A stretch of 64,000 nucleotides of DNA, from NCBI GenBank assembly GCA_964618955.1, contig CAZUBO010000002.1, forward strand, positions 1,582-65,581, read 5' to 3'. Of the stretch, positions 1-64,000 are shown piece after piece. The position numbers and the translations under genes were made by a program. The first letter of the stretch is position 1. Every line of letters begins with the position of its first letter. This DNA is from an uncultured Candidatus Saccharibacteria bacterium. GTDB taxonomy: Bacteria > Patescibacteriota > Minisyncoccia > UBA6257 > JAKLIH01. Under the pieces are notes generated by a model. The model had not been told where the DNA came from. It saw only the letters and a list, made by a program, of their open reading frames with translations, and searched no databases.

Positions 1-1224
1 AAAGGTGTTTTATTGATGGGTCTACCCGGAACCGGAAAAACCCTTTTGGCAAGGGCCATAGCTGGTGAAAGTAATGTGCCATTCTTTCATATTTCAGGTT
101 CAGAATTCGTAGAGATGTTTGTGGGAGTTGGTGCTTCTAGAGTTCGCTCAGCTTTTGCTATTGCTAAAAAAGCCGCTCCTTCAATTTTGTTTGTTGATGA
201 GATTGATGCTATTGGTAGAGAAAGAGGATCTGGTATTGGCGGTGGACAAGACGAAAGAGAACAAACTTTGAATCAAATATTAGTTGAGATGGATGGCTTT
301 GATAACAATACTAATGTTATCGTAGTAGCGGCTACTAATAGACCTGATGTTTTAGACAGTGCGCTATTAAGACCAGGAAGATTCGATAGAAGAATTACAT
401 TACATTTACCTGATATTGATGAGAGAGAAGCAATTTTGAAGTTGCATATGACAAATAAAAAGATGGTAAAAGATATTAATGTTCGTAAGATTGCTGAAAG
501 AACGCCAGGATTCTCAGGAGCTGACTTAGAGAACTTAGCTAACGAAGCTACTTTGTTAGCTGCTAAGAATGATCAGAAGGAAGTTACTGAGAATGATGTC
601 TTGCAATCAATTGAAAAAGTTATTCTAGGACCTGAAAGGAAGAGCCATATCATTCAACCAAAAGAAAAAGAAATTACTGCTTATCATGAAGGTGGACATG
701 CATTGGTAGCTTCGAAATTGAAAAATGCTGATCCAATTCATAAGATATCTATCATATCTAGAGGAAGAGCAGCTGGATATACCTTACAATTACCCTTAGA
801 AGATAAAAACTTCTTGACTAAATCAGAGATATTGGACGAATTAACAACTCTAATGGGTGGCTATAGTGCTGAAGAATTAATTTTTGATGAGATATCTACT
901 GGATCATCTAATGATTTAAAAATTGCATCAGAACGAGCTAAAGCTTTTATTGTTAAGTATGGTATGAGTAAGTTAGGACCAATATCATTAGTTGATGATG
1001 AATCAGTATTCTTAGGGAAGTCATTGACTTCAAAACATAACTATTCCGAAGAATTAGCTAGTAAGATTGATAATGAAATGAGCGATTTATTAAATACTGC
1101 TCATAAGAAGGCTAAAGAGATTTTGAAAGAGAATAAAGATACTTTGGAAAGAATAGCTAAGAAATTACTTGAGAAAGAAACATTGGAAAAAGAAGAATTT
1201 TATCAATTACTTGAAGAAAAATAA
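1..1224 (+). CDS. ftsH: ATP-dependent zinc metalloprotease FtsH (5'-truncated by window edge)
   Basis: Frame 1 is open from base 1. Walker A GLPGTGKT, Walker [10 protein letters not shown], second region of homology [20 protein letters not shown], zinc motif HEGGH. TAA stop. Confidence 0.97.
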
Positions 1225-1234
1225 AGATTATGCT

Positions 1235-1275
1235 AAACTAGATGCGAATTAAAATTTGCATCTAGTTTTCTTTTA
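1235..1275 (+). terminator. Rho-independent terminator after ftsH
   Basis: Inverted repeat aaactagatgc / gcatctagttt followed by a T-rich run. Confidence 0.6.
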
Positions 1276-1282
1276 ATATTTT

Positions 1283-1355
1283 GGGCGTATAGCTCAATTG
1301 GTAGAGCGGCTATCTTATACATAGTTGGTCGTGGGTTCGAATCCTACTACGCCCA
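1283..1355 (+). tRNA. tRNA-Ile, anticodon UAU (reads AUA)
   Basis: Hand-folded cloverleaf: acceptor GGGCGTA/TACGCCC, D arm GCTC..GAGC, anticodon stem GCTAT/ATAGT, loop CTTATAC (U33, anticodon TAT, A37), T arm GTGGG-TTCGAAT-CCTAC. No encoded CCA. Confidence 0.85.
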
Positions 1356-1399
1356 CAGAATATTGATAAAATCAAAAAAATATGTTAAATTAGATGTAT

Positions 1400-1473
1400 G
1401 GACGATTAGCTCAGTTGGTTAGAGCGCTACATTGACATTGTAGAGGTCAGAGGTTCGAGTCCTCTATCGTCCA
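1400..1473 (+). tRNA. tRNA-Val, anticodon GAC
   Basis: Acceptor GGACGAT/ATCGTCC, D arm GCTC-AGTTGGTTA-GAGC, anticodon stem CTACA/TGTAG, loop TTGACAT, T arm AGAGG-TTCGAGT-CCTCT. Confidence 0.9.
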
Positions 1474-1529
1474 CTAAGACATCTGTTCTTTTGTTAAAAG
1501 AAAATTATTTATATAGGAGGTAAATTAAA

Positions 1530-3934: not shown

Positions 3935-5189
3935 AATTCTGAATATATAGCTTATGATGATAAGATATGGCAAAGCGATGGGATTCATCTTGAATAGCTT
4001 TTAGCATATTAGCTAATTCTTTGGATAATTTCGAAAGATCAAAATATTTGATTTCTTTATTGAAGACTAGGAGTTGTTTTTTACCTTTAGCTAAAGAGCC
4101 AAGAAGAACGTTTTTGAAGTCTTTGTTGTTAGCAAATATGTTGATTGCAGTTTTGAGTTGAGTGATACCACCATCAATTAGAATTAAATCCGGTTGAAGT
4201 CATTGAGTATTTAATACTCGACGCTGGAAAACTTCTTTAAGCATTAAGATGTCATTGGGTTCGAGTTTGGTATATTTAATTTTGAATTTTTTATAATTGT
4301 TCTTTGAGGGAATACCGTTTGAGAACATTGCTAAAGAAGCGACGGCAAACTTACCACTGATATTAGAGACATCATACATTTCGATGTTGGTAATTTTGGT
4401 TTTGGTTTGAAAAAGATCTTTAAGTTCTTGGTTGATATCTGAATAATTACTTGATTCAGTCTTGTTGAGGAATTGACGATGTTTGAAGATATTTTCTAAA
4501 GCAAGAATTTGATTCTTAATTACTAAAGCTTTTTCAAAGTTTTGTTTCACAACTTCTTTTTGAAGTTGGAGTTTCAAATCCTTAATGAGTTTTTTGTTAT
4601 CACCATTAAGAATTTTTATAATATTCTTAATGTTTTGGAGGTATTGATTCTTTTGTTCTTTAGAATATTTTGCATCTTTGAGGCAGCAAAAGCCTAAACA
4701 AAGATTGAGTTGAGAAGATAAGCATGGTTTTTGATGCTTAGTCTTGCAATTACAGTAGGGGAAGATAGGTCGCAATAGACTTAAAAGGTGTTTTAAATGA
4801 GTCCCAGAAGTGAATGGGCCTACTTGATAGCTAGATTCATCTTTTCGATGAGTTAATGATAGCTTAGGAAAGGTATCTTTAGAAATATTTACAAAAAAAT
4901 AATTCTTGTTATCTTTAAGAACAACATTTACTCTAGGTAGGTGTTTTTTAATTAGATTAGATTCTACAATCAAAGCTTCAACATCATTTTCAGTAATGAT
5001 CCACTTTAGATTGGTAGCATACTTACCGATAGTTTGGTTCTTTTGATTGCTTAAGTCTAGATAAGACTTAAGGCGTTCTTTAAGACTAGAGGCTTTACCA
5101 ACGTAAACAACTTCTTTATTATTGGTAAAGATATATACTCCGGGTAGACTAGGACTACTTTTAATTTTTGATATTATTGATTGGTTCAT
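3918..5189 (-). CDS. uvrC: Excinuclease ABC subunit C, short form (423 aa, no C-terminal HhH2 domain)
   Basis: GIY-YIG N-terminus (PGVYIF..VVYVGKA), Cys-rich region, UVR-like helix, endonuclease core with PDLILIDGG and ESHRFAISYH. ORF 4200..5189 extends through TGA (4200) to TAA at 3918. Confidence 0.88.
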
Positions 5190-6750
5190 CGTTAGTTGAC
5201 AAATTTAAAGTTTTGAGAAGAGATTGGCCAGTCATTTGGATTGGTTGCTGGATATTAAAGATATCTAATATAGTAGGACTGATATCAGCTAAAATACCAA
5301 TAGCGCTTTTTTCATGGCTTTGAATTTCTTGGAATGTTAAAGGTTGTTGGTTTTTTCAATCTTTAGAAATCAAATGTAGTGGAACAAAATTGTCATCATG
5401 CTTGAATTCTGGTTCACCAGTTAGAGGATTCTTCATTCTTTCGATATTGCCATGATCAGAAGTAATGACGAAGGTATAGGAATTAATACCATAGTCAATT
5501 AGTTTTTGAATTTCACTATCGATAATTGAAACTGCGGTTTTGGCAATATCAATATCACCAGTATGACCAGCTAAATCAGCATTAGGATAATTAATTAGAA
5601 GGAAGTCATAAATATTCTCATCGATAATTTGTTTGGCTCTTTCGGTTATATTCGGTGCTTCTAAGTATGGATTCTCTTGGAATTTTAAAGAAGTATCGGA
5701 TGGCAGAATGAATCAAAATTCTCCTGGGAAGGGTGTTTTGTTTAGACCATTGAAATAGTAAGTAACGTGGAGAGATTTTAAAGATTCTGTTAGATGAGCT
5801 TGGCGTTTTTGATTTTGAGAAAGAACAGCTGATAGAGAGTGTTCAACTTTTTCATTAGGAAAGGCTATTTCAATATTTAAATCTTGTTTAAGATCTACAA
5901 AACTTAGGATTTTAAGATTGGTTAAGCCAGAGATATTCGTGTGAAGTTTTTTTACTAGATATTCCATTGGGAAATAGTTAGGTTTCAAATTGAAAAGAAT
6001 AAGACTATCATTGTTAGAGATTGGTTTAAAAATATCTTTGACGGCAAAAGGTTCGATAAATTCATCAGTAATATTCTTTTGTTGTAATTCTTCTAAATGA
6101 GGAACTAATTCTTTAGAAGAATTAATTGATTCGTTAGCCAAAAGGAAATTACAATATTTCTCTAGATACATTTCATTATGATCATTAAGAGCATAGAATC
6201 TTCCTGATATTGATCCAATTTTGATAGCACCGAGATTGCTAACTTCTTTATTGAGTTTTTCTATAAGACTGATTATTTCATTTTTAGGACCATCTTTGCC
6301 ATCAGTTATGAGATGAAGACAGATGTTATTTACATTATTGATTTTAGCCATATAGATTAAGGAGATAAGATGACTTATAGAAGATAGAGTCTCACTAGAA
6401 CTAATAGAGCCAAGAAGATGAAGGGTGGAATTGTTTTGTTTAGCATGATTGATAGCTTGTAGTATTGGTTGGTTCTGAAGGAAGGAATTATTAGAGATAC
6501 TTTGATCAATTCTAGTTTTGGCTTGGTAAATGACTTTGCCAGAACCAATGATAAGATGACCAACTTCACTAGAACCTTCTTCAAGATAATTTAGACCACT
6601 AGCAATACCTGAGGTTTGAAGCGCATAATAGGGATAGTTTTGCTTAAGACTATCCAAAAAAGGGGTTTTACTTAGATATATGGGATTAGTATCGTCATTA
6701 TGACCAATACCTCAACCATCGATAATTATTAGACAAACTTTTTTATTCAT
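5161..6750 (-). CDS. gpmI: 2,3-bisphosphoglycerate-independent phosphoglycerate mutase
   Basis: MNKKVCLIIIDG-W-GIG N-terminus, central ORF 5713..6657, C-terminal NADLAGHTGD and ITSDHGN motifs. I hand-translated 5161..5715 and found only TGA interruptions. Overlaps the uvrC start by 29 nt. Confidence 0.9.
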
Positions 6751-7526: not shown

Positions 7527-9605
7527 ATGTTAAAAAACAAATTGTTAAAAATATTGAATTCTCCTTGATTTATTAGTGCTGTAATTCTAATATTAATTTA
7601 TATATTTTTATTTGCGCAAATACCTTGGAATTTAATTTTTAGAGATACTATGGTTTCTGGTGGGGATACTGGATCACATAATTATATAGTATATAAACTA
7701 AAGAGTATTTTTCCAGTTATAAAGACCTGAACTCATGATTGATATGGTGGTTTTCCTTTTTTGTATTTCTATCCACCGTTAATGTTTGTTATTTCAGTTT
7801 TGTTAAGCTTCTTTATGAAGCTAAATGTTGCTTTTAAAATAACAACATTATTAGGTACTCTACTAATGCCAATATGTGTGTATTTAGGGTTGAAGTTCTT
7901 GGGGTATAAAAAGCACATACCCGAGATTGGAGCGGTAGGCTCAATATTGTTTTTGTTTTTAGAAATCTTTAATATCTATGGAGGAAATATACCTAGCACT
8001 TTAGCCGGGGAATTCTCTTATTCATTCTCCTTTGCATTATTCTTCTTGTTTATTGGACTATTATCTAAGGGAGTTGATGAAAACAAATACATATTACCAA
8101 ATGTTATAATACTAGCTTGTATGGCTTTAGCTCATCCTTTTCCAGTTATTAGCGCTAGTATTTATGGTGGATTACTAATATTCTTGAGAAAAGATTGAAA
8201 AAAGAGACTAGTATATATTATGAAAGTATTTTTGATGGCTTTTTGTATTACAGCTTTTTGATCAATTCCTTTTTTGTATTATAAATCATATACCAGTATG
8301 ATGAATTGATACCAAACCATAAAGATTGAAGAGATTCTACCAAGATTCTTAGTGGTATTTCAATTTGGAGCATTATTGGGAATTTTCTTTAGTATCAAAG
8401 AAAAAAGTTCAAAGATATTTAATTTCTTAATTATTGGAATTCCAAATTTTGTTTTGTTCATGCTGATAAACAATTCGCCAATTTACAATACTCGATTTTT
8501 ACCTTTTGTGATTATGAGCTATGTATTATTAGGGGCAGTGGGATTAGGGGAGGTGTTGAATGAATTGTTCTCAAGAAAAAAAATTATTCATGCTATAGCA
8601 GTTATTATTTTCTTAGCTTGAATACTATCAGCTATTAATCCAAAGATGATTTTGGGGAAGAATACTAAAAAAGAATCTTTGATTAAATATATTCCAATGT
8701 GAATGGAATGAAATTACAAAGGTTTTGAAGATAAAGAGCTTTATAGAATTAATGCTTTACCATTATTTGAGTATTTAAAAAACCTTCCTTATGGAAAAAT
8801 GATGTGAGAATATCGACCTGAGTATGATACTTTTGGAACACCAAGATTTTTAGAGAATTTACCAGTACTAACTAACAAACCAACTTTTGAGGGATTACTG
8901 ATTGAATCATCAATCTTTGGACCTTTTCATTTTATAAATCAAACAGAGACTACTCAAAGTCCAACTTCAGCTATTGCTGGATTTGAATATCCACCATTTG
9001 ATTTTGTAAAAGGGGTTGAGCATTTGAAATTATCTAATGCTAGATATTTTGTAGCTTATACTGATAATATTAAATTATTGGCTAGCCAAAATATGAAGTG
9101 ATTAAAAGATATTGGGACGTTTTCAGTATATGAAATACCTAAAAATAATGTTGTCGATATCTTTAGCGATTTTAAAGTTCAAGCCAAGAAAAAAGATTGA
9201 ATTAAAACTTCAATTAATTGGTACAAGAATGGTAATTTAAAAGAACCAATTGTTTTTTATTCCAATAAGTTACAAAAGGATTTGTTAAGTAAGGTTGACG
9301 ATTCAAAGACTGATAATACCGTTGAAATATTAAATTTAACTGATGCAGAAATTACCTTTAAGACTAGGGATTTGAATAAATTACATATGATCAAAGTATC
9401 ATACTTCCCAACTTGAAAAGTGAAGGGGGGCGATGGGCCATTCTTAATGTCGCCATCATTCATCGGAGTAATTCCTAGGCAGAATATTGTTAGTATTAAA
9501 TTTGGCAATGGATTAGTGGATAATATTGCTTATCTATTGACTTATACGGCTATTGCAATTGTGATTATAAAGATAATAAGGCCGAAGAGTATTAAGTTTA
9601 TATAA
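7527..9605 (+). CDS. Large polytopic membrane protein (692 aa), GT-C-like / 6-pyruvoyl-tetrahydropterin-synthase-related membrane protein family
   Basis: ATG is 1 nt after the GT2 stop. ORFs 7761, 8352 and 9420 are all in the same frame. I hand-translated the gaps and found only TGA. N-terminal GGDTGSHNY motif, many TM helices, soluble C-terminal part, final TM anchor. Confidence 0.7.
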
Positions 9606-11412: not shown

Positions 11413-11487
11413 GCGGGTGTCGTATAGTGGCTATTATATCTCCTTGCCATGGAGAAGACGGCAGTCCGATTCTGCTCACCCGCTCCA
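11413..11487 (+). tRNA. tRNA-Gly, anticodon GCC (CCA encoded)
   Basis: Acceptor GCGGGTG/CACCCGC, anticodon stem TCTCC/GGAGA, loop TTGCCAT, discriminator U, CCA. The T loop reads TCCGATT (C at position 55). Confidence 0.85.
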
Positions 11488-17817: not shown

Positions 17818-18783
17818 ATGAAATTGAATAGAGGCTTTATTGAAAATATATTTGTAATTACAGCACTATCAATAATAGTAGCCTTTTCAGCATTCATTTC
17901 AAAACAAACAAAGGAGGTAGAGATTTTTAAATTAAAGACAGTGAATAATGTCATACATAATTTTAAAGATAAAAATATTTTAGTTTTAGGTATTGCCGGA
18001 TTTGAAAGCAATGGACCATTGCTAACTGATGTTATGATGGTAGTAAATGTTAATACTGAGAAGGCGAGTATAAAGGCAGTTTCAATTCCTAGAGATTTGC
18101 TAGTTAATATCGAGAAGACCGAGAAATTTACAAAGATAAATAACCTGCTAACAGTTGATAATCCAAAATTGAAAATTAAGAATACGGATTTAATTAAGAA
18201 TAAGATTGCTCAGATTACAGGATTAAAGATTGATAATTTGGTGATTGTTGATTTGGATGGTTTTCGATATTTTATTGATGCTATTGGTGGAATTAATGTC
18301 TACTTAGATAAGCCACTATATGATCCAAAATTAGCTAATCCGGATAATCCTAATGAACGATTCTCTTTAGAAGCTGGTTGGAATTTCTTGGATGGCAAGA
18401 AGGCAGCAAAGTTTGTTCGATCACGTTATGCTGCTACGGGAGACTTTTCGAGAATCGATCATCAGCATGACTTATTAATGTCGGTATTTCAGAAGCTAAA
18501 GAAGATAAATGCTTTTACAAATCCAGTAATGCTATACAAGATCTATAGTAGTTGAAGTGGTTATCTATATACTGATTTAAATATTAATGATGGTTTTAAA
18601 TTATTGCCTTTAGCAAAAACTTTAAATAACAAGAATATATCTTTTACAACTATTAGTTATTCTCAGCCCAATCCGCTATTAATGTCGAGCAGTTCGGATA
18701 TAAATGGATATTTTCTAATGCCTCGTATTGGGTTAGAGAATTACACTGATATCCAGAATTATATTTATGATTATATTTATTAA
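17818..18783 (+). CDS. LytR-CpsA-Psr (LCP) family cell-wall glycopolymer ligase
   Basis: TM anchor, then TDVMMVV..SIPRDL..DGFRYFIDAIGGI..RSRY..GDFSRIDHQ motifs. Continues through TGA at 18553 to TAA at 18781. Confidence 0.85.
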
Positions 18784-18785
18784 CC

Positions 18786-19376
18786 ATGGAAACAAAGAAT
18801 AATAAAAAAATATTAGTAGGATTAAATAATCCAGGATCAAAGTATGATAATACTCCCCATAATATCGGGAAGGTGTTTTTGGAATGATTGGTTGATAAGT
18901 TAGCTGAGGACGGGAAGATTGAATCCGGATTAAAATGAAAAGATGATAAGAAGATATCAGCTAAGATACTAGAGATTACTATTGGACACAAAGATATTGT
19001 TTTAATTCTGCCAAAGACTTTTATGAATAATTCGGGGTTAGCAGTTGTGAAGGCTTTGAACTACTACAAGATCGATATGAAGGGATTGATGGTAGTTCAT
19101 GATGAAGCTGATATGCTTATAGGGAAGGCTAAATTAGGTTTTAGCCATTCAGCGGCTGGACATAATGGAGTTGATTCAATAATTCAGAATTTAAAGACTC
19201 AGTCTTTTTGAAGATATCGTATTGGGATAAGACCAATAGATATTTCGGAATCTAAATATCAATTCAAAGCCGGGGATTACGTAGTAAAGGCAATGACTAA
19301 AGAGAATCAAAAGATTCTATTCAATAGCTTTGAAAAGTACTATTTAGACATCATGAGATGGATAGTAAATAGCTAA
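18786..19376 (+). CDS. pth: Peptidyl-tRNA hydrolase
   Basis: LVGLNNPGSKYDNTPHNIG N-terminus, MNNSG, VVHDEADM, HNG motifs. Three in-frame TGAs. ORF 19023..19211 is its central fragment. Confidence 0.9.
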
Positions 19377-22262: not shown

Positions 22263-24152
22263 ATGTGTGGTTTTAGTGGAATCATTGATTTTGAAAAGAA
22301 GAATGATTTAGAATCAAATCTTAAGAAGGGAATTGATGAATTAATTCATCGGGGACCAGATAATCAAGGTTTGTATTTTGAAAAAGACTTAGGATTGTAT
22401 TTTGGTTTTAATCGTTTAAAAATTATTGATTTAAAAGATGCTAGCAATCAACCATTTATAAGTGCTGATGGTTTGGTTATTATGATGTTTAATGGAGAGA
22501 TATATAATTACAAAGAATTGAAAAAAGAATTAAATGAGTTTGAATTTAAAACTGATAGTGATACTGAAGTATTGTTGGCTTGCTATCAAAAGTTTGGATT
22601 GAAATTTTTAGATAAAATTGAAGGGATGTTTTCAATTTGTATTTTTGATAAAAATGAAAACAAAGTTTTGTTAATTCGAGACCGCTTAGGAATCAAACCT
22701 TTGTTTTATTTGATTAATCAAAAACAAATTTTGTTTTCTTCAGAAATCAAATCAATTTTAAAGATGGATTTGATTAAAAAAGAAATTAATCCAACAGCAA
22801 TAGATAATTATTTAACTTTTTTATGTACGATTGATAATCAAACTCCATTCTTAAATGTTTTGAAGTTAAGACCAGGAGAGATGATGGCTATAAACTTAAA
22901 TGATAAAACAATTCTACATAATGAGTATTGAGATTTGAAGGTTAATGCAAATACTGAAAAAGAAGAAGATGTTATTAAAAATGTTTTTAAGAAGTTATCG
23001 GATTCGATTACTGAACAGATGCAAGCTGATGTTGATTTTGGTTGTTTTTTGTCTGGTGGATTGGATTCAAGTTTAAATGCAGTTTTGATGTCAGAGAAGT
23101 TAGGAGTGCCTGTTAAGACTCTATCAGTATACTTTGATAGCCCAAAATACAATGAAATACAATATTCTAGGATGATTAGTGACAAATTAAAGGCTACAAA
23201 GTTTGAGAAAGAAATTACTCAAAAAGACTTTTGATTGTTTTTAGATGAATTCAAATCAATAAATGACAGTTTAAATGGAGATTTAGTATGTTTTCCTTTG
23301 TATTTCTTATCGGAAATGACTCATTTGAATAATATCAAGATGATTCAAGTAGGAGAAGGGGCTGACGAGATCTTCTGCGGATATAGAAGGTTCAAATATG
23401 CCAAAATGATATGGCTAATTGATTGGTTATGAAGTAAGACTATAAAGTGAGATTACAGGATTAAGAAGGGGTTGATGGTTTTAGTTGAGTGAATGCTAAA
23501 GAAGGATAGTATGGGTTTTGAAATGACTAGAAGATGAAAGAAGGGATTACCTTGATACTTTGGAGCTAATAATATCTTTACTGAATTTGAAAAAGAAAGT
23601 ATCTTTGGAAGTGAATTTGGTAAGAATATTGATAAGAGATTTTCTGATAAAGTAATAAGCTTGCATTATAATTCAAAACATTCGGCATTACAGAAGATAA
23701 CATATCTAGAGACAAAATTAAGGTTACCAGAATTGTTACTGAATAGAGTAGATATGCTAACTATGAAGTTTTCAATTGAATCTCGGGTACCGTTCTTGAA
23801 TTCTAAATTAGTAGAATATGTTTTTAATGTATCGGATGGTTTGAAATTGAAGAATAATACTACAAAATATTTGCTTAAAAAAGCAGCTTTTGGTATTATA
23901 CCTAATGAGATAATCGACCGTAAGAAGCAAGGATTCTGAGCACCGTTCTTAGAATGATATATGTTTGATAAAGAATTTAATGCCAAAATTCAAAGTTTGA
24001 TTTTAAATTCAAAGTTATTAAAAGATAAAGTTTTGAAGACTGAATATGTTAAAGAATTATTGAAGGAATCAAAATTCAACGAAAGAACTATTTTAAAAGT
24101 TTGATCAATATTAATACTAAGTAATTTCTATGATTATTACTTTGCTGAATAA
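22263..24152 (+). CDS. Asparagine synthase (glutamine-hydrolysing)-like amidotransferase
   Basis: MCGFSGII Ntn glutaminase start and SGGLDSS PP-loop. ORFs 22263, 22935, 23235 and 23661 are in one frame. I hand-translated the gaps and found only TGA. TAA at 24150. Confidence 0.88.
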
Positions 24153-37056: not shown

Positions 37057-38385
37057 ATGAAAGCCAAGCAAAATCAAATGGAAAAATTAGTAGCCTTTTT
37101 AAAGGATAACGGATTTATCAATCTATCATCAGAACCTTATGGTGGGTTCTCAAGTTCGTATGATTACGGCCCTTATGGAGTTGAAGTAAAAAACAATTTG
37201 AAAAAGGCTTGATGAGATACTATGACAAAAGAATTTGATAATATTGTAGGGATTGATTCTTCAATATTAATGTCTCCTAAAGTATGAGAAGCTTCGGGAC
37301 ATTTAACTGCTGGCTTTGCTGATGAATTAGTTGAATGTAAAGAATGTCATAAGAGATTCAAGGCTGATGAATTAGAGAATGAAAAATGTCCAAGCTGTAA
37401 GGGGGAATTATCAGCTCCAAAGAAATTCAATGTAATGATGAAGACTTTTGTAGGACCAATCGAAGATAGTGCTAATATTGTATATTTGAGAGGAGAAGCT
37501 TGCCAGGGAATATATATGAATTTCTTATGAGCAAAGAATTCAGCTAGAATGAAAATACCTTTTGGTATTTGTCAGATTGGAAAAGCTTTTAGAAATGAAA
37601 TTACTCCTGGACCGTTTACTTTTAGAACCAGAGAATTCGAGCAAATGGATTTACAATTCTTTGTACATCCATTTGAAGCTGATAAATACTTTGAATTCTG
37701 AAAAGAGCAAAGAATGAATTACTACTTGAAGTTAGGAATTAGTAAAGGCCATTTGCGTTTTACAGATCATCCTGAAAACAAGTTAGCTCATTATGCTAAG
37801 AAGGCTTGTGATATTGAATATTTGTTTCCTTTTGGATGAAGCGAGATAGAGGGAATACATAATAGAACTGATTGAGATTTAGGGAATCATTCTAAGGCTA
37901 GCGGAACAGACTTATCATACTTTGATCAAGAGACAAAGGAGAAGTATATGCCATACATTATCGAAACTTCTGCTGGATGTGATAGAACTTTGTTAGCATT
38001 CTTATCAGAAGCCTTTGTTGAATTCGAAAAAGGTAGAAATGAAGATTCCGAAAGTACTGAATACTTGATGAATTTGAATAAGAAATTAGCTCCAGTTAAG
38101 GTAGCTATAATGCCTTTGATGAAGAACAAAGAAGAATTGCAAAAGAAGGCTAGAGAGATATATGATAATTTAAAGTTTGAATTCAATACTAAGTTTGACG
38201 ATAGTGGATCTATTGGAAAACGCTATCGTAGAATGGATGAGTTAGGAACTCCTTATTGTATTACAATTGATTTTGATACTTTGACTGATGATTGCGTTAC
38301 CGTTAGAGATAGAGATACAATGAAGCAAGAAAGAATTGAAATCAAAGAATTAAAAAATTTCTTAAGAGAAAAATATGCTTACTAA
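37057..38385 (+). CDS. glyQS: Glycine--tRNA ligase (alpha2 / GlyQS type)
   Basis: [26 protein letters not shown] (TGA TGA at 37210..37215), [42 protein letters not shown]-terminal anticodon-binding domain in ORF 37948..38385. Confidence 0.93.
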
Positions 38386-42030: not shown

Positions 42031-43530
42031 ATGAATAAGAAACTATTTGTAACATGTGCGTTACCATACATCAATGCTGAACCTCATTTAGGTCATGTGT
42101 TTGAATTTATTCAAGCTGATTGTTTTGTAAGATTCCATAAGATAATAGTGGATGAGGTATATTTTACAGCTGGGACGGATGAAAACAGCTTGAAGAATAT
42201 CATTGCTAGCAAAGAAAATGGGGTTAGTATTAAAGACTGATTAGATCAGAAGTCAAATTCATTTTTGAAGTTGAAAGATGATTTTAAAATATCTTTTGAT
42301 GATTTCATTCGAACTTCAGAAGAGAGACATCACTTAGGAGCTCAGAAGCTCTGAAGCGCTATGGACAAGAATGATATTATCAAGAAGAATTATGAAGGGC
42401 TATATTGTGTTGGATGCGAAACATTCTATACGGAAGACGAATTAGTTGATGGCTTATGCCCAGAGCATAAGAAAGCACCAGAAAAGATTACGGAAGAGAA
42501 TTACTTTTTTGTATTGAAGAATTACCAAAAGTTTTTAATTGATAAGATTGAGAAGAATGAATGAAAGATTATGCCAGAAAGTCGTAAGAATGAAATGCTA
42601 AGTTTTATTAAAGGAGATCTATTTGATGTGAGTGTCACTAGAAGTAAAAAGAGAAGTGAAGGATTGGGAATTGAAATACCAGAAGATAAAGACCAAGTAT
42701 TATGAGTTTGAATCGATGCATTATCAAACTACATTAATGTTTTGAATTATGGATTAGAAGATACTTCTTTATTTGAAGAATGATGAAATAAGAGTGACGA
42801 GATATGGCATTTCTTAGGTAAGGGAATTTTAAGATTCCATGCAGCTTTTTGACCAGCATTCCTAGAATCAGCTCAGGTTAGAATCCCAACTCATTTATTC
42901 TGTCATGGATATATTACTTTGAATAATGAGAAGATGTCTAAGTCTTTAGGGAATAGTTTAAATCCAAGAGATTTATTAGTTAAATATCCGGTGGATTCAA
43001 TACGATATTATTTAATGAAGGATATTCCTTCAGGAGATGATGGAGATTTTAATGAAGTTAATTTGACTAATAGACATAACAATGAATTATGTGCTTCTTG
43101 AGGGAATTTGGTTTCTAGAGTATTAGCTTTAGGAGAACAATACCAAAAGCCAATAAAGTTGAATTCTAATGAATTGAAATCTGAAATTGAAGTTGCAATT
43201 AAGAATTATACTGAATGTTTTTCGAATGTAAAGATTAATGACGTTGTGAGTGTTTGTTTTGATTTGATTGCCAAAATCAATAAATACATTAGTGAACAAA
43301 AGCCTTGATCATTGATAACTAGTTCTGAATCTGACTTTGAAAGAATAATTTCAAGTTCTTTATATGGCGTTATATATGCTAATATGCTATTATCAGCCAT
43401 AATGCCAGATAGTAGTTCAAAGATATTTGATACTCTAGGAATAGAAGCTAAGAATTTGAAAGACTTAGAATCAATTAATGGTAGAGAATTCAATCTTAAA
43501 AAACCAGAGAATTTATTTAATAGAATTTAA
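42031..43530 (+). CDS. metG: Methionine--tRNA ligase (short form, 499 aa)
   Basis: PYINAEPHLGH (HIGH), zinc knuckle CVGCETF..CPEH, VL-W-V-W-IDALSNY, FHAAF-W-PAFL (TGA 42850), KMSKSLGN. Five track fragments are in one frame. Confidence 0.93.
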
Positions 43531-45862: not shown

Positions 45863-45890
45863 GTTAATGCTTGGGGTTAAAAAATATATT

Positions 45891-47993
45891 ATGAATTTTA
45901 AAGAATTCACATTGGATATTAATGGGACACCATTAACTATCAAACATTCACTATTGGCAAAACAAACCAATGGTTCAGTTTTGGCTAAGTTCGGGGGATC
46001 CGAAGTATTAGCAATTTCAGTTATGGGGATCGAAGATAAATTCGATAAGGATTGTATGCCTTTATCAGTTGATTTTGAAGAAAAATATTATGCTACTGGC
46101 AAGTTACTGGGTAGCAGATATATGAGAAGAGAATCTAGACCAAGCGAAGGAGCTACATTAACTAGTCGTATGATAGATAGAACTATTAGGCCTTTATTTA
46201 ATCCTTACTTACGTAGAGAGGTTCAAGTTAATGTAACTTGTTTAGCTTTTGATGAAGTTAATGATCCTGATGTGCTATCAATGATTAGTGCTTCATTAGC
46301 ATTAATGATTTCTAATATTCCTTGAAATGGACCAGTTGGCGCTGTTAGAATTGGATACAGCGAGAAGACTGGATTTGTTGTAAATCCAACATATGTTCAA
46401 AGAGAAGAGGGTATGGATTTTGAAATGGTTTTGTCAGGAGTTAAGAACAAAATCAATATGATTGAATTCCAAGGCAGTGAAGTTAGTGACGAATTAATCA
46501 CTCAAGGCTTTGAGATTGGTCAAAAAGTAATAAACCAAATATGTGATTTCCAAACTGAAACTCAAAAAGAAATTGGAAAAGAAAAATCGGGTTTAAATTT
46601 TGTTTGTATTGATCCTGATTTCAAAAAAAGAGCTTATGAATTATTACAAGCAAAACAACAAGAGATTTTATTTAGTAAGACTATGGATAAATTAACTAAG
46701 CAAACTGAAATGGCTTTGTTAGTTAAAAGTACAACTGAAACTTTGAAAGGTGAAGGTTTTGAAGAAGACAAACTTAATACTTTAACTTTGATAATTGAAG
46801 AATTAACAAATGATATTTTACATAATGAAATTTTACAAAAAGGCAATAGACCAGATGGTAGATCGCTTACTGAGATTAGACCATTAGATGCGATGATTGA
46901 TGTAATATCTCGAACTCATGGAAATGCATTGTTTGTTAGAGGTGATACTCAGACATTATCTACTGTTACATTAGGATCGCCATTAGAAACTTTATCAGTT
47001 CAAAGCATGGAGAGCGTTGCAGAAAAAAGATACTTCCATCACTACAACTTCCCACAATGATCAGTTGGAGAAGTTGGAAGATCTAAAGGACCAGGTAGAA
47101 GAGAATTAGGTCATGGAGCATTAGCTGAGAAAGCCATATTGCCAATGTTACCTAGTAAAACTGAATTTCCTTATACTATGAGAGTAGTATCTGAAGTCTT
47201 ATCTTCTAATGGTTCTAGCTCTATGGCTTCAACTTGTTCGTCTTGTTTAGCCTTAATGGCCGCTGGAGTACCATTAAAAGAGATGGTAGCTGGTATTGCT
47301 ATGGGTGTCATTATTGACGAGAAGAACGAAGCAAATTACAAGATTATAACTGATATTCAAGGACCAGAAGATCACTATGGTGATATGGATTTCAAAGTTG
47401 CTGGTACTAAGAATGGTGTAAATGCTTTGCAATTAGATGTGAAGATTAATGGTATTGATGGAGAATTATTAAAGAAAGCTTTAGCTCAAGCTAAAGAAGC
47501 TAGAATGTTTATTCTAGAAAAAATGAAATTAGCTATTAGCGAGCCTAGAAAAGAACTATCTCCATTTGCTCCAAAGATTATTTCGTTTGATGTCAATCCT
47601 GAGAAGATTGGGGAGATCATTGGTTCAGGTGGAAAGACCATAAACAAAATTATTGAAGTTACTGGAACCAAGATTGATATTGAAGAAAAGACCGTATACG
47701 TTATGGGTATGGACTTGGAGAAAGTCATGCAAGCCAAATCAATCATTGAAAACTTGATTAAAGAATATCAAGAAGGAGATATTGTTGAAGGTGTTGTAGA
47801 AGAATTAAAAGACTTTGGTGCTATCGTATACTTTGATGGCAACAATAGTGGATTACTACATATCTCAGAAATATCTGATAAGAGAATTAATAAAGTAACT
47901 GATGTTTTGAAGATTGGAGACAAATTAAAATTAAAAGTTATTAGAGTAGAGAACGGAAGAATTTCTTTATCATTAAGAGAAATGACTAAATAA
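45891..47993 (+). CDS. pnp: Polyribonucleotide nucleotidyltransferase (PNPase)
   Basis: Two RNase PH domains (YNFPQ-W-SVGEVG, SSNGSSSMA), KH (GSGGKTI), S1 (GDIVEGVV). Fragments 45867, 46413 and 47139 are in one frame. An alternative start at 45867 is possible. Confidence 0.93.
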
Positions 47994-48877: not shown

Positions 48878-50086
48878 ATGTTCTACTATTGATACCTAAA
48901 TGTATATGCCTATTATAGCAAATTAATTGCCAGAACACAAAGATTTTTGAAGCCAGTAATTAGGTTAGTGGTTTTTGCATTTAAGAAGATTACCAGTAAA
49001 GTTGAATGAGAGTTGATAGGAGCTTATTGCTATAAAAAATGCAAGACCAATACTAATACGATTGCTTTGGTAGTGTTCTTTGTTTTTGCTATTAATGTTG
49101 CTATGATGTTAAATGGGATATCAAATATTTCTTTTTCGAATTTGTTTGCTGATACAAATATTATTGTAGAAGCAATGGATTTACAAGATCCAGTTAGTAC
49201 TCATGAGACGGTTTCGATAAATGATATTAATCTAGATAGCTATGACTACTATCAGAATCTAAATATGGAAGCTAAACCAGAAGACTTCTTAGATCTATAC
49301 TTAGTGGAAGATGAAGCCTTTTTGTTACGTAGTATTGATTTTTCAGAATCAAATATTGATATTTCAAAACCAGATAGAATTATATCGTATGTTGTAAAGC
49401 AGGGAGATACTTTAGAGAAGATTGCTAAGAATTTTGGAATTAATGTAGAAACTTTAAAGACAGCTAATTCTTTGAAAAAATCAGTGATTGCTCCAGGACA
49501 GAAGTTAGTGATTCTTCCAATATCAGGTATTTACTATACTGTTAAGAAGGGGGATAGCTTAGGGAAGTTAGCAATCAAATACAAAATCTCAGCTAGTGTA
49601 ATTCGAGAATACAATAATTTAGAAAATGATACTTTAAAAATTAATGAGAAAATTATCTTACCAGGGGCTAAGGAACAAATAATTGCAAATGTTACTAAGA
49701 GTGGTACAAAAATAACTGAAGTAGGTGGAAGTGGATTCTTCCTATATCCAACAGTAGGATGGAATTGAGGTGAAGCTCATGGAGTAGGTGGTTGTGCAGT
49801 TGATATTGCTAATACCTGTGGCACACCAATCTACGCTAGTGCTGATGGTACAGTAATTGATTTACGAACTAGTGGATACAATTCCGGATATGGACTATAT
49901 ATCAAAATACAACATAACAATGGAACTTCAACATTATATGCTCATTTAAGTCAAATACTAATTACTAATGGCCAATACGTAAGTAGGGGCCAGATGATCG
50001 GGAAGATGGGAACTACTGGTAAATCAACTGGATGTCACTTACACTTTGAAGTGAAGGGTGTAAAAAATCCATTTATTAAAAAATAG
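48878..50086 (+). CDS. Membrane-anchored LysM (x2) + M23 (lysostaphin-type) peptidoglycan endopeptidase
   Basis: Two LysM repeats (YVVKQGDTLEKIAKNFG, YTVKKGDSLGKLAIKY). M23 motifs H-x3-D context (AVDIAN) and HLHFEV after one TGA. The start is uncertain (48878 ATG or a downstream start). Confidence 0.82.
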
Positions 50087-50098: not shown

Positions 50099-52378
50099 AT
50101 GTCTAAAAAAATAGCCAAAAAAATTCTTTTGATAATTCTTCTGGGTTTTATGATATTAGGAGGAGTTAGCGCTCCAGGAGTGAATTTCAAAGCTCCTAAA
50201 GCTGAAGCTTCTATTTTCAATTGAGTAGCACCTAAAAAAACAGCTGAAACTCCAGTAAAAGGAGACGATGGTACGAAAAAGAATTCTTGTAATACTTGTT
50301 TTGTGGCTGTTAAGACTGGCACAATATGAAATATGTTATCCGCTCCGATTGATACAGTCTTATCGCTTATACCTAGAATTTTAGTATTTGTAATAAAGTG
50401 AATTGTGATTCTTTTGGCAAAACTTTTACAAGCATTAATGGCTCCTCAAGGAGGCGGATTATTCTTTAAATTAAATCAGTTCATGCCAACTTACAATGAA
50501 GCAGGGCAACAAACTAGTTTTATATATTGACTTTGAAGTGTATCGCTTTATTACGCCAATATATTAATAACGTTATTTTTAATTTGAATTGCTATTAATA
50601 TTATTTTGGAGAAAAAAGAATATACCAATTACCAAAATTTAATTAAATTGGTAGGAGTTGCTTTATTAGTTAATTTCTCCTTAGTAATATGTGCGGTATT
50701 TGTAGATATATCTAATTTTATAGCAACTTTATTTATGTCAAATATCGCTATGAATTCTTTTTCTTGTATGTATGCTTGTACTATCCATAAAGTGGCAAAT
50801 ATTTTTAATTGTAAACAAGATAATATGATATTTTCTTTGACAATTTCTAATAGCTTAGCATTAATGGTTGGATTGGTATTTGTTGGACAAATATTAGGAT
50901 TGATTATGTATGTACTTACTCGTATGGTTTATTTATGATTTTTGGTTGGCATATCACCAATTGCTTTTGTATTATCAGCTATACCAGAAACAAGAAAATA
51001 TTACAAACAATGATCTGATTTGTTTATAGCTAATTTGACTAAATTACCAGCATTAGCATTTGCTTCATATTTTATTTTAAATATGATGATCTATATTTCA
51101 AATAATTATATGATGAGTACTGATACTGCTAATACAAATTGAATGCAAAACATATTGGGAATGGGAAATAACACAGCTAGCGAGAATCTTTGAATTTCAA
51201 CTTTAGGAATTGTTTTTATATTATTTATATTATCACAAGCTTTATTAATGGTGGCTCAAAACTTAGGAGTAGAACAGATTTCCAAAGCTTCAGCATTTGC
51301 AACAGGCTGAGCTAAAAAAGGGTGAGATGCAGTGAAGAATCCTACTATGAGCTATGGAAGAAAGAAATTACTTAGTTCGAAGCCAATGCAAAGTTTTACA
51401 AAGACTCTTACTGGCAGTAAAATAGCTCCTCTAACAAGGCTTGGAAACAAAGTCGCTGATCAAATGACTAGGGAACAAAAGAAATCTCAAGGCGAAATTA
51501 ATTACTGAAAAGAAAACTTGAATGCTGGTATGCTTGAGAGAATTGTTAATGACAACAAGAGCGCACGAGGAGATAAAACAAAATTCTTACAAGCCATCCA
51601 AGCCTTGTCAGAAATGCAATCAAAGGGTGATTATAAAGATCCTGGGGTTGGGAAAAATAAGATTAAAATTTTGGATAATCCAGAGAATATGAGTATGGTA
51701 AAGAATTTGGTAGCTGACGATTTATATGGAGAGACTGATGCGGGCAAATTCATGAAGAAGCGTTATACTTGAGTGAAGGCTGGTCCAAAATCAGAAGATT
51801 ATAAGTCTGCAGCCGAAAAGATCTTGGGAACTGGTGCATCTGAAGCTGCTCTTAATAAGAAAATGGAAGAGTTGGCCTTTAGCGCCCCATATTATGATGC
51901 CGCTAGTTTTAAGGGTGGTAAACTAAGAGATGAGCTCTATGGAAGAGCTACTGACCAAGACAAAGCCGGTCTAAATGATTGACACGCCGAAATCAAACAT
52001 CTTTTTGATGCTAGTAAAACTAACCCTGATCCTGAAAAATTTGCCGAAATGTTTCAATTATTTCAAAAAACAATTAGCGCCAAAAAGATGCAATTGATTT
52101 TTAACAAACTACCTAATGTTCAAAGAGCAACATTTTGAGATATGATTGCCAGAATGGCTATAGTAGCGAAGAAAGTTAAGGATAAAAAGCTTGGAAGCAA
52201 TAACCTAGATGCTGAATTCACAAATATAAAACCTGACGAAATATACAATGATGCCGAAGACGCATTGAGCGAATTGGCTGGTGGACAACAATACAGCTGA
52301 ATGGCTACTCCTAAAAACGCGGACTCCCTTTCTTTTGCTAGATCTTTGCGAGATAATGATTTTATAAAGTTAAAATAA
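50099..52378 (+). CDS. VirB6/TrbL-like polytopic membrane protein with long soluble C-terminal extension (759 aa)
   Basis: Signal/anchor, then at least 6 hydrophobic helices rich in TGA-encoded Trp, then about 350 aa of hydrophilic sequence. The assignment rests on topology and on its position directly upstream of VirB3/VirB4 homologs. Confidence 0.5.
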
Positions 52379-56323: not shown

Positions 56324-56333
56324 GAATTAAATT

Positions 56334-57137: not shown

Positions 57138-57141
57138 ATAT

Positions 57142-58224: not shown

Positions 58225-58255
58225 AAAAACCTCCGAAGTAATTCGGAGGTTTTTT
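58225..58255. terminator. Strong bidirectional terminator closing the T4SS-like operon (overlaps the jag stop)
   Basis: aaaaacctccgaa gtaa ttcggaggttttt. Confidence 0.8.
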
Positions 58256-58724: not shown

Positions 58725-58725
58725 A

Positions 58726-59406: not shown

Positions 59407-59411
59407 ATAGT

Positions 59412-59744: not shown

Positions 59745-59748
59745 AGTG

Positions 59749-59889
59749 TTAAGCGCTTAATTTGACTCTACCTTTCATGCGACGGCCTTTAACGACTTTT
59801 TTCCCAGCACAGGTTGATTGTCTAGCTAAAAAACCAAACTTTCTTGCTCTTTTAACCTTACTTGGTTGATAAGTTCTTTTTGTTGCCAT
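59749..59889 (-). CDS. rpmH: 50S ribosomal protein L34
   Basis: [46 protein letters not shown]. Confidence 0.95.
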
Positions 59890-60215
59890 AATATATAGTT
59901 TTAGTATTTAATAGTTATATGATAACATATTTTTTTGTAGAAAACAAGGGGGAAAATTAGTTAAGAAAAGAAGGTTTTTTGATAACTTTACTGTACCACA
60001 TTAAGGAGTGAAAATTTCATTGTATGGTATATCTAGGACCAGGGACATCATTGACGCTCTATCCTTTCATTTTAGCACTGCAAAAAGATAGAAGATATTG
60101 GCATTTCTAGTGTTTTGTACTAGAATGAGCATGGTAGTTAATTTTAGTATCTATTCATTGAAATTTTAATATATTTATGATATATTTGCAATATATTAAA
60201 TTTAATAAAATACTT

Positions 60216-60821: not shown

Positions 60822-60837
60822 AAAAATGGAAAGGAAG

Positions 60838-60864
60838 CGAAGCGCGACCTTTCCTAATGTTATT
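60838..60864 (+). terminator. GC-rich hairpin after the NYN gene
   Basis: ggaaagg aagcgaagcgcga cctttcc. Confidence 0.45.
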
Positions 60865-61157
60865 TATATATTATCATATTTTATAAAAAAATGCAATAGT
60901 AAAGGTATTAAAATATACTCTGATAGAAGGGCATAGGATTTTTTGTTTTTTATCTTTTCTCCATCTATAGAACTAAAGGTTGTCAATAATGCTACGGTTT
61001 TTATACTAATTTGCCAGTTCTAAAATCACAATAATTCTTATCCCCACCTTTTCCACAGAAAGACGATAAAAAAGGCGTTATTGTATTGAAAATTTTTGAA
61101 AAAGCAGTTATACTATTATTACTAATTGACTTGCAGAAAAATACTAAACTGATTCTT

Positions 61158-62558
61158 ATGAATGCAGATGAATTGAAAAAATTATGAAAAGACGTAATGT
61201 CAGAAATAGAACTAAATATTTCTAGAGCAAATTTTGTTACTTGATTTAAGAATAGTGCTATTATCGATAAGAATAAAGATACGGTAACCGTAGCTACTAA
61301 TTCTAATTTTGCTAAAGAATGATTAGAGAATAGATACAATAAATATATTAAGAAGGCTTTAGAGAAGTTAGCTCCGGAAATTAAGAATGTAATATATAAA
61401 GTAGAATCAATTGAGAATATTCAGAAATTCCAAACAGCAATTGAAGAAGGAAAGAAGACTGAAGTAGTAAAAGTTAAAAAGCCAGCTGAGCAAACTGATT
61501 CTTTAACTAAGATTGCTCAAGATCCAAATACTAATTTAAATTCAAAATATACTTTTGATAATTTAGTAGTTGGTTCTCACAATGAATTAGCTCATGCAGC
61601 AGCTTTAGCGGTATTAGATAATTTAGGTTCCAAATACAATCCTTTGTTTATTTATGGAGGAGTTGGATTAGGGAAGACTCATTTAATGCAAGCTTTAGGA
61701 AATGCTTTTAGACAGAGTAACAAAAAATTAAATATCTGATATATCAATACTGAGAAATTAGTTAATGATATTATTGGATCTATTCGTGAACAAACAATTG
61801 ATACAGTAAAGAAGCAATACAAAAAGTTAGATATATTATTGATTGATGATATTCAATTCTTAGCTAATAAAGAAAAGACTCAGGAAGAAGTATTCCATAT
61901 CTTTAATACTCTGTATGATGCTAACAAACAAATTGTCTTTACGTCTGACCGACCACCAAAGGCAATACCAGGATTAGAAGAGAGATTACGATCACGGTTT
62001 GAAGGTGGAATGGTAGCTGATATTAGTCTACCTAATTACGAGACTAGAGTCGCAATATTGAAGAATAAACTACGAGAGAAGAAGACGAATTTACCAGATG
62101 AAATTATTGACTATATTGCTCAGAATATTACTAATAACGTTAGAGAATTAGAAGGGGCTTTAAATACGTTATTAATTAACTTTGAAGTTAAGAAGATTAC
62201 TCCAAGTATTGAATTATCAAAGAAGTTGTTAGAAGATTTTATTAAGAAGCCAAAGAAGATGGTGACGCCTAATGATGTTTTAAAGTTAGTATCAGCTTTC
62301 TATGATATTTCAGTTGATAAGATCAAAGGGGAATCACGAAGGAAAGACTTGGTAAAGGCAAGACAAATTACTATGTATATCTTACGAGATGTTGTGAAGT
62401 TATCTTATCCAGCTATTGGAGAAGTTTTTAATCACAAAGACCATACAACAGTAATGCATTCATGTAAGAAGATTGAAGACGAGAAATTAAAGGATAGTGT
62501 ATTAAATCAAGAGTTAGAATCGATAATTGAAAAGTTGAATTATGATGTGTTTAACTAG
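61158..62558 (+). CDS. dnaA: Chromosomal replication initiator DnaA
   Basis: The N-terminus has three TGAs (61185, 61242, 61320) exactly where E. coli and B. subtilis DnaA have Trp. Walker [20 protein letters not shown], box VII/VIII, C-terminal DNA-binding HTTV motif. Confidence 0.95.
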
Positions 62559-62826
62559 TGGAAAAAATTGTTGATAACCTTAGGTTAAAAATGTTGAAAA
62601 GTATTGTATAATAATTGCCAGAATTTAATAATAAGTTATACTGAAAAGTTATTGGAAGTTGTCTACTAGTTAGGGTTGAGTTATACAAGAGTGAAATTTG
62701 AAAAAAGATAGTACTGAATTGAATAAAGTTAGTTATCCACTTTTCCACCGAGCTAATAGTAATAAGAATTTATATTTATATTTTAAAAATAAAAAATACA
62801 ATTAATAAAACTATTAAAAATATTAT
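62559..62826. other. Candidate oriC (dnaA-dnaN intergenic region)
   Basis: DnaA-box-like 9-mers ttatccact (62733), ttttccacc (62741) and the complement of ttttccact (62557), followed by an almost pure A/T stretch at 62761..62826. Additional boxes ttatcccca (61038) and ttttccaca (61049) lie upstream of dnaA. Confidence 0.55.
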
Positions 62827-63942
62827 ATGAAATTTACATGTTTAACTACAAACTTACAAAAGGCAGTTAATGTTTGTGAAAAAATTACTAATAGAAATTT
62901 AAGTTTGCCAATCTTAAATAATATTTTAATTAAGACAGTTAAGAATCAATTGCAATTGGTTTCAACCGACTTAGAGATTGGGTTGAATTATTATGTAGCG
63001 GGAGAAGTTAAAGAAGAGGGGAGTATTATAATCCCAGCTAAATTACTATTAGGATTAATTAATAATTTAAAAGAAGAAAAGATTACGTTAGAAACTAAGA
63101 AAGATAAGTTATATATCCAAACTAAGGATTTTGATTTGAATGTTCAAGGTTTTGATAGCACTGATTTTCCAATCATTCCTAGAATTGAAAGCGAAGATAG
63201 CTTGGATATTGAAGCTAATGAATTGTTATTGACTTTAAATCAAGTTATTAAAAGTGCTAATGCTGGATTTAATAAACCAGAATTAAATAGTGTATATTTT
63301 AATGTTGATAATGACGAGATGTTCTTTGTAAGTACGGATAGTTTTAGATTATCGGAAAAGCAATTAAATAAAAATGCGTATAAATTCAGCGGGAAGAAGG
63401 ATGTAAAGATGATAGTTCCAATCAAAACTATTCAAGAGGTTATTTTGATTTTACAGAATTTTGATGATGTAAATAATAAGATTAAGATCTATTTCTCAAA
63501 CAATCAAGTGTTCTTTGATTTCGGGAATGTAAATTTGATTTCTCGTTTGATTGAAGGGGAATTTCCTAATTACAAGAATATTATTCCAAAGACTTTCCAG
63601 ACTAAAGTTCAAATAAACAAAGAGACTTTAGCAGAATCAATTAAATTAATCAGTTTATTAAGTAGTCAAATTAAAGATTTGAATATTCAATTTGATTCTA
63701 AAAAACAAGAGATGATATTGAAGGGGGCTGACGTTAATAAAGGCGAAGGAGTCTATCGGTTGAAATGTGTTATTGATGGCTATGATGCGAAGATCTGTTT
63801 TAATTATAGCTATATCTTGGATGGGTTGGACTGTATTAATAATGACGAAGTCTTCTTTGGAATTAATGAAGACAGTCCCGCATTAATAAAGTCTACTGGA
63901 GACGATAACTTTATATATGTTTTAATGCCAATTAGGATTTAA
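62827..63942 (+). CDS. dnaN: DNA polymerase III beta sliding clamp
   Basis: Uninterrupted 371-aa ORF. Three-domain clamp with LSTDLEIG, FVSTDSFRL, LIEGEFPNY motifs. Sits directly after dnaA. Confidence 0.93.
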   Translation: MKFTCLTTNLQKAVNVCEKITNRNLSLPILNNILIKTVKNQLQLVSTDLEIGLNYYVAGEVKEEGSIIIPAKLLLGLINNLKEEKITLETKKDKLYIQTKDFDLNVQGFDSTDFPIIPRIESEDSLDIEANELLLTLNQVIKSANAGFNKPELNSVYFNVDNDEMFFVSTDSFRLSEKQLNKNAYKFSGKKDVKMIVPIKTIQEVILILQNFDDVNNKIKIYFSNNQVFFDFGNVNLISRLIEGEFPNYKNIIPKTFQTKVQINKETLAESIKLISLLSSQIKDLNIQFDSKKQEMILKGADVNKGEGVYRLKCVIDGYDAKICFNYSYILDGLDCINNDEVFFGINEDSPALIKSTGDDNFIYVLMPIRI

Positions 63943-63958
63943 AAATTAAAAGACAAAT

Positions 63959-64000
63959 ATGTTTCAGGGAATAGGAGAAGTATTAAAGAGAAGATTAAAA
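63959..64000 (+). CDS. Start of an unidentified gene (3'-truncated by window edge)
   Basis: ATG 16 nt after the dnaN stop. Only 14 codons are visible (MFQGIGEVLKRRLK). Confidence 0.3.
   Translation, partial: MFQGIGEVLKRRLK

Follow-up and report, generated by a model that had tools for sequence, protein, structure and literature searches.

Reassignment of UGA to tryptophan within the patescibacterial family JAKLIH01 was reported in Nucleic Acids Research in April 2026. There, Codetta called the change from 150–303 Pfam columns, and the JAKLIH01 genomes had 0% UGA stops and 82–88% UAA stops, lacked release factor 2 (RF2) and, in two of four genomes, encoded a tRNA with the anticodon UCA [tRNA(UCA)] (PMC13092985). 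The 27 standard-code relatives retain UGA stops, with an RF2 gene recorded in each row examined (PMC13092985). The gTranslate preprint of May 2026 describes the same reassignment, with loss of RF2 and a tRNA(UCA), in 12 JAKLIH01 genomes, finds it also in 10 genomes of the genus GCA-2747955 (class Minisyncoccia), and calls the Patescibacteriota the first phylum in which translation tables 4, 11 and 25 occur (10.64898/2026.05.24.727570). We found no further papers on the family JAKLIH01 in the literature searched. Here, we analysed the genetic code of a 64,000-nucleotide stretch of metagenomic DNA (GenBank contig CAZUBO010000002.1, positions 1,582 to 65,581; hereafter the window). A reading made from the sequence alone, hereafter the sequence-only reading, had proposed that UGA is read as tryptophan in this DNA, and our analysis supports that interpretation. 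We hold it very probable that UGA has completely lost its stop meaning and become a tryptophan codon (table 4) in a low-GC member of the Patescibacteria, a group of ultra-small bacteria of the candidate phyla radiation, most likely in or next to JAKLIH01. The case itself is already known, being published for what is very probably the family of the window; the window adds at most another JAKLIH01 member and a minor point about how the UCA tRNA is built.

Compared with JAKLIH01, the window differs in nothing of kind and would represent at most another species or genus. It shares the reassignment, the lack of UGA stops, the low GC content and the preference for UAA (91% of gene ends), and it is syntenic with, and 66–74% identical in protein sequence to, GTDB genomes, the name-bearing one among them. 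GCA-2747955 belongs to the same class and has the same reassignment, with tRNA-Trp(UCA) present and prfB absent, but is described as a lineage of its own, part of whose members still use table 11 (10.64898/2026.05.24.727570); we liken it to the window by description only. The Gracilibacteria/BD1-5 and Absconditabacteria (GTDB class JAEDAM01) share the phylum, reduced genomes and the removal of UGA from the stop set, but there UGA encodes glycine through tRNA-Gly(UCA) (table 25), in another class and by an independent event. The Mycoplasmatales and Entomoplasmatales, together with insect symbionts (Hodgkinia, Zinderia, Nasuia and Stammera), share table 4, AT-richness and the loss of RF2; most have tRNA-Trp(UCA), and TGA outnumbers TGG, as in the window. 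These belong to unrelated phyla, whereas the window organism retains cell-wall enzymes, pilin-like proteins and a type IV secretion-like cluster.

The window has a GC content of ∼30%, with almost all genes on the plus strand. When TAA and TAG are taken as the only stops, 55 compactly spaced genes tile 92.5% of it, while splitting them at TGA yields 125 fragments and lowers the coding density to 74.5%. Of the 55 genes, 44 contain in-frame TGA, in keeping with the claim of the sequence-only reading that more than 35 genes are split at TGA. As that reading also held, every gene ends at TAA (50 genes) or TAG (five) and none at TGA, so UGA does not serve as a stop codon in the window. The genes contain 158 TGA and 30 TGG codons; TGG is thus still used, as claimed, but TGA makes up 84% of the tryptophan-type codons. 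Tryptophan would account for 0.15% of residues from TGG alone and for 0.95% with TGA counted. We dropped the lifting of other stop codons as a control, because at 30% GC reading TAA as sense inflates spurious frames, and replaced it with random sequences and per-frame stop counts. Frames of at least 100 codons delimited by TAA or TAG sum to 85.0 kb over six frames, the longest having 762 codons; in 50 composition-matched, first-order-Markov random sequences, such frames averaged 7.2 kb and the longest had 211 codons. The long frames free of TAA and TAG are therefore far beyond chance expectation. Inside genes, TAA and TAG together number 0 in frame 0, 1459 in frame 1 and 1618 in frame 2; the corresponding numbers for TGA are 158, 472 and 954.

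To define the amino acid, six conserved proteins (DnaA, GlyRS, MetRS, iPGM, PNPase and Pth) were translated with X at each TGA and aligned to solved structures from standard-code organisms, which gave 29 TGA columns. The majority residue was W in 11 columns, F in seven, Y in two and G in one, the last being ambiguous, and, averaged per column, W had a BLOSUM62 score of +3.4, F of +1.3 and G of −2.2. The three TGA codons at the DnaA N-terminus (61185, 61242 and 61320) fall on conserved tryptophan positions, as the sequence-only reading had it, with W at all three in Bacillus subtilis DnaA and at two in that of Thermotoga maritima. Four GlyRS sites (37210, 37213, 37285 and 37699) align with W, and the WW, VWEASGH and Y/FW positions are W in three to four of four homologues; a further site in the DFDL motif (37873) aligns with F. 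This bears out the first two GlyRS motifs that had been proposed, but the alignment of the third, FGW, is ambiguous owing to an indel, as is that of the site at 37837. In MetRS, the sites at 42709 (VW), 42850 (FWP) and 43306 (PW) are W in every homologue, the site at 42784 is W or R in an uncertain alignment, and the remaining sites are F, Y, L or I. The proposed YVW and FWPA motifs hold for VW and FWP, while the first TGA of YVW lies on a tyrosine position. For iPGM, the suggested DG-W-G tryptophan did not stand, the position being F in the solved homologues. The six positions that the reading had named (the three in DnaA, with 37210, 37213 and 42850) are all TGA. In the MetRS, GlyRS, DnaA, iPGM and PNPase alignments, homology runs through the TGA sites to a normal C-terminus, and the predicted C-termini lie only a few residues from where the solved-structure alignments stop.

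Related loci allowed the same codons to be compared across genomes. A protein scan with RNase J, using one genome per GTDB species, found seven related loci, and a look-up of DnaN cluster mates added five metagenome contigs, giving 12 related loci in total; the codon-level alignment was restricted to true orthologues. Opposite 254 window TGA codons, the relatives have TGA in 187 cases, TGG in 39 and a glycine codon in one. Conversely, TGA stands opposite 19 of 35 window TGG codons, but opposite only three of 1818 window GGN codons. Orthologues of the 692-residue membrane protein hold TGA or TGG at the matching sites. Judged by these alignments, TGA and TGG evidently act as synonyms among the relatives. 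Together with the columns favouring W, this interchange, with a glycine codon seen only once, argues that UGA is tryptophan (table 4) and not glycine (table 25). UGA is thus the main tryptophan codon of the window, placed at tryptophan or aromatic positions, interchangeable with UGG and never found at a gene end. Wherever enough sequence could be aligned, the relative carries in-frame TGA, which makes the recoding a trait of the clade.

The window is most likely chromosomal DNA of a low-GC Patescibacteria member, in or beside JAKLIH01 (order UBA6257, class Minisyncoccia/Paceibacteria), judged by protein similarity and gene order. Its RNase J is 71–83% identical to those of Patescibacteria metagenome-assembled genomes (MAGs) in the seven GTDB hits, several of which carry an automatic ‘uncultured Candidatus Saccharibacteria’ label. 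Four loci with that title (L001, L004, L005 and L007) are nevertheless closest to L002 among the genomes compared. The L002 locus is contig JAKLIH010000001.1, whose prefix matches the GTDB family name, and its genome appears to be the name-giver of JAKLIH01. RNase J is 82% identical between the two, and amino-acid identity is 65.9% over 15 orthologues in a shared gene order. Across the GTDB genomes, amino-acid identity is 61–74% over 5–15 orthologues with conserved gene order, reaching 72–74% for L001 and L006, and it is 80–93% for the five metagenome contigs (L009–L013). The latter extend ∼3 kb beyond the right edge of the window, where they encode DciA, ArgRS, TsaE and then a pilin. In three of them (L010, L011 and L013), the public table-11 gene calls from JGI (the Joint Genome Institute) fragment DnaA, ArgRS and the VirB4-like ATPase.

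The reassignment could be as described but the organism lie outside JAKLIH01, either in GCA-2747955 or in some undescribed lineage that was recoded independently. The identity of only 66% to the name-bearing JAKLIH01 genome leaves room for this, the placement comes from similarity and synteny, and a second, separate recoded genus is known in the same class (10.64898/2026.05.24.727570). On the other side, the gene order of ∼20 kb around RNase J is common to the window and JAKLIH010000001.1, whose orthologues have TGA (33 codons) or TGG (10) opposite the window TGA codons, and all seven GTDB hits are recoded, consistent with one recoded clade. We therefore consider a position outside the family unlikely.

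A second possibility is that UGA carries two context-dependent meanings, tryptophan within genes and stop at the end of some of them, as happens in certain protists. From the window alone, a few true UGA stops could hide within frames that continue to a later TAA or TAG. However, all 55 genes reach TAA or TAG with compact spacing and high density, the solved-structure alignments finish close to the predicted C-termini, and a search of four JAKLIH01 genomes for C-terminal extensions and UGA stops found neither, nor RF2 (PMC13092985). A dual meaning is accordingly very improbable, and complete reassignment to tryptophan is preferred.

Transfer RNAs bear on the identity of the amino acid as well. 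The window encodes eight tRNAs, among them the Val-GAC, Leu-GAG and Gly-GCC species with G34 that the sequence-only reading had listed. A metagenome collection was scanned for a tryptophan-type 5′ half joined to a UCA anticodon loop, leaving the 3′ half unconstrained. Ten hits were obtained, of which eight lie on contigs of 25–32% GC in which reading TGA as sense greatly lengthens the open frames. The other two were set aside: L016 has 57% GC and is unrelated, and L017 is mitochondrion-like, with nad5- and atp6-type genes. The tRNA(UCA) of the relatives is 73 nt long and has A1-U72 and G73; its acceptor stem and D arm resemble those of bacterial tRNA-Trp, and it lacks the glycine identity elements U73 and G1-C72, which the window's own tRNA-Gly(GCC) carries. 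The identity check that the sequence-only reading had suggested thus came out tryptophan-type in the relatives. One of the eight contigs (L023) comes from the JGI sample that also gave the close relatives L010 and L013, and encodes a pilin-like protein 62–66% identical to the three pilin-like paralogues of the window. L023 and L014 share S2 (81% identity), EF-Ts and a tRNA cluster, and L014 encodes release factor 1 (RF1), itself with three in-frame TGA codons. The gene order of these relatives is rpsB-tsf-x-tRNA-Thr-(LAGLIDADG-like open reading frame)-tRNA-Tyr-tRNA-Thr-rpmG-tRNA(UCA). By eye from the translations, we annotated the LAGLIDADG-like frame between tRNA-Thr and tRNA-Tyr (L014:7023-7829 and L023:532-1353) and a small four-helix frame resembling an ‘intervening sequence’ just upstream of tRNA(UCA) (L014:8262-8588 and L022:2343-2669).

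These results decide against glycine (table 25), the meaning of UGA in Gracilibacteria/BD1-5 and Absconditabacteria (SR1). Those lineages share the phylum, small low-GC genomes and similar content, including pilins and cell-wall enzymes, and one GlyRS TGA does align with G beside an indel. However, G is the majority in one of 29 columns against 11 for W and scores negatively on average, as the profile-column check proposed in the sequence-only reading now shows; tryptophan would also fall to just 0.15% of residues, the UCA tRNA of the relatives has tryptophan and not glycine identity, and the nearest genomes are Minisyncoccia and not the table-25 class. The column scores and the codon comparison with relatives refute this reading, to which we give almost no weight.

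Equally implausible is that UGA remains a stop, with the in-frame TGA codons marking pseudogenes, assembly errors, selenocysteine sites or programmed read-through, although public table-11 gene calls do split these genes in L010 and L013. The TGA codons are spread over four-fifths of the genes, including dnaA, pnp, pth and those for GlyRS and MetRS; homology continues past every TGA to the normal C-terminus, 12 independent contigs have TGA or TGG at the same sites, no window gene ends at TGA, and Rfam found tRNAs only, with no element resembling a selenocysteine insertion sequence (SECIS), in the window. The conservation data refute this reading. Lastly, an origin of the contig in a classical table-4 organism (a mollicute or insect endosymbiont), or a chimera with one, can, in agreement with the sequence-only reading, be dismissed as scarcely credible: low GC and UGA as tryptophan are textbook mollicute traits, but all seven GTDB hits come from MAGs that are Patescibacteria or carry an automatic Saccharibacteria label, the window encodes LCP, LysM/M23 and type IV pilin-like proteins as well as a secretion cluster of the Patescibacteria type, and its uniform GC content and GC skew speak against a chimera.

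Some observations nevertheless weigh against UGA as tryptophan in this organism. Certain TGA codons meet other residues in the homologues: V, M or I at the fourth site of DnaA (61737), N at 37528 in GlyRS, and R at one site in iPGM. Where distant homologues have a non-aromatic residue opposite TGA, this is what a variable position would be expected to show, yet it gives no positive support. Neither a tRNA-Trp of either anticodon nor any other UCA tRNA is encoded in the 64-kb window, and the tRNA(UCA) is known from relatives and not from this genome. No tRNA-Trp was found in loci L001–L013 either, and the contigs around dnaN (L009–L013) have no tRNA at all. No release factor gene is among the window products examined, 64 kb being too short to show that prfB is absent. 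The family placement, too, comes from similarity and synteny to the name-bearing genome.

In the mechanism we propose, extrapolating from the relatives and the two 2026 papers, a tryptophan-type tRNA with anticodon UCA, its gene probably beside rpmG as in the relatives, would read UGA and, by wobble, UGG; RF2 would have been lost, and RF1 would terminate at UAA and UAG. Historically, AT mutational pressure may have removed UGA stops, after which RF2 would have become dispensable and been lost, tRNA-Trp would have gained U34, and UGG would have drifted to UGA.

The structure of the UCA tRNA offers a further detail. In all six distinct tRNA(UCA) sequences, position 27:43 is a non-Watson–Crick combination (A.A, G.A or A.C), leaving an anticodon stem of 4 bp. 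The 20 remaining pairs of the cloverleaf are intact in every sequence, and three helices show compensatory changes. Neither the UCA tRNA sequence nor its unpaired 27:43 is described in those parts of the published JAKLIH01 text and supplements that we examined. A standard-code UBA6257 relative has a tRNA-Trp(CCA) whose stem is of 4 bp, with G27.A43 (PMC13092985), and tRNA-Trp with a 4-bp stem reads UGA in Escherichia coli (PMC13092985). Because of these two observations, the reassignment may have begun with a leaky tRNA-Trp. We put forward only tentatively, as rather less probable than its opposite, that the UGA-reading tRNA of the clade is not an ordinary tRNA-Trp with a changed anticodon, and that reassignment started from a leaky ‘superwobbling’ tRNA-Trp, before the loss of RF2 and the change of C34 to U.

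Another tRNA of the window is tRNA-Ile(UAU), at 1283-1356 on the plus strand, immediately upstream of tRNA-Val(GAC). ATA is frequent in the window genes (535 of 1919 isoleucine codons). In most bacteria, AUA is read by a lysidine-modified CAU tRNA.

The coordinates of the features are collected in Table 1. Pfam confirmed the LysM/M23 and LCP enzymes and the N_methyl proteins that the sequence-only reading had described as cell-wall and type IV pilin-like genes, but the protein it had assigned a 3D domain (32645-33196) has no Pfam match, even at E ≤ 0.05. The three pilin-like paralogues are near-identical over their first ∼230 residues but divergent in the C-terminal half. A Patescibacteria system treated in PMC12102498 is similar to the type IV secretion-like cluster of the window, and one of the cluster's proteins is TraC-like by the annotation of the relatives. 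GC skew is positive throughout the window (+0.11 to +0.34), including the minus-strand genes and the junction between jag-yidC-rnpA-rpmH and dnaA-dnaN. At the dnaA junction (58254-62558) the skew does not switch, and 58 kb of genes are oriented towards dnaA. An NYN-domain gene (60177-60821, plus strand) lies between rpmH and dnaA; in L009–L013, this spacer is only ∼300 bp and geneless.

Table 1. Features of the window and of related contigs (positions with an L prefix refer to related contigs)
Feature	Position	Strand	Remarks
Whole window, UGA as sense (Trp)	1..64000	.	55 genes, 44 with in-frame TGA
iPGM (cofactor-independent phosphoglycerate mutase)	5161..6750	-	3 TGA; homologue residues F, R, I
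692-aa membrane protein	7527..9605	+	13 TGA; orthologues in relatives 64–69% identical over full length
tRNA-Gly(GCC)	11413..11487	+	G1-C72 and U73; identity contrast for the relatives' tRNA(UCA)
LytR-CpsA-Psr (LCP) family protein	17818..18783	+	Pfam
Pth (peptidyl-tRNA hydrolase)	18786..19376	+	3 TGA; F or variable positions
Asparagine synthase-like gene	22263..24152	+	10 in-frame TGA; Pfam domains span the TGA sites
Pilin-like paralogues	31233-32474, 40768-42006	+	N_methyl and Laminin_G_3
Pilin-like protein, N-terminal methylation motif (N_methyl) and Laminin_G_3	35771..37009	+	Pfam
GlyRS (glyQS-type glycyl-tRNA synthetase)	37057..38385	+	7 TGA; solved-structure alignment
MetRS (methionyl-tRNA synthetase)	42031..43530	+	10 TGA; solved-structure alignment
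PNPase (polynucleotide phosphorylase)	45867..47993	+	2 TGA (46323, 47058), both on conserved aromatic (F)
LysM and M23 peptidase (cell-wall hydrolase)	48878..50086	+	Pfam
Type IV secretion-like cluster	50099-58212	+	Includes the 759-aa membrane protein with 17 TGA
759-aa membrane protein, type IV secretion-like cluster	50099..52378	+	17 TGA, highest of any gene
PrgI-like protein, type IV secretion-like cluster	53448-53855	+	
TraG/VirB4-type ATPase, type IV secretion-like cluster	54539-56323	+	Pfam
dnaA	61158..62558	+	4 TGA; aligned to 8btg, 2z4r, 1l8q
tRNA(UCA) in related contigs	L014:8642-8714, L015:1127-1199, L018:94-166, L019:168-240		
tRNA(UCA) in related contigs	L020:264-336, L021:1796-1868, L022:2217-2289, L023:2-74		

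With UGA as tryptophan in one of its members, the Patescibacteria phylum is the only one known among bacteria to use tables 4, 11 and 25, a third code standing within a phylum that also holds the UGA-to-glycine lineages. It provides an independent example of stop-codon capture in an organism that is neither an endosymbiont nor a mollicute. In practice, table-11 gene calling mis-annotates JAKLIH01 genomes, as the split DnaA, ArgRS and VirB4-like ATPase genes in L010 and L013 illustrate, and assuming table 25 from the phylum name would mistranslate JAKLIH01 proteins.

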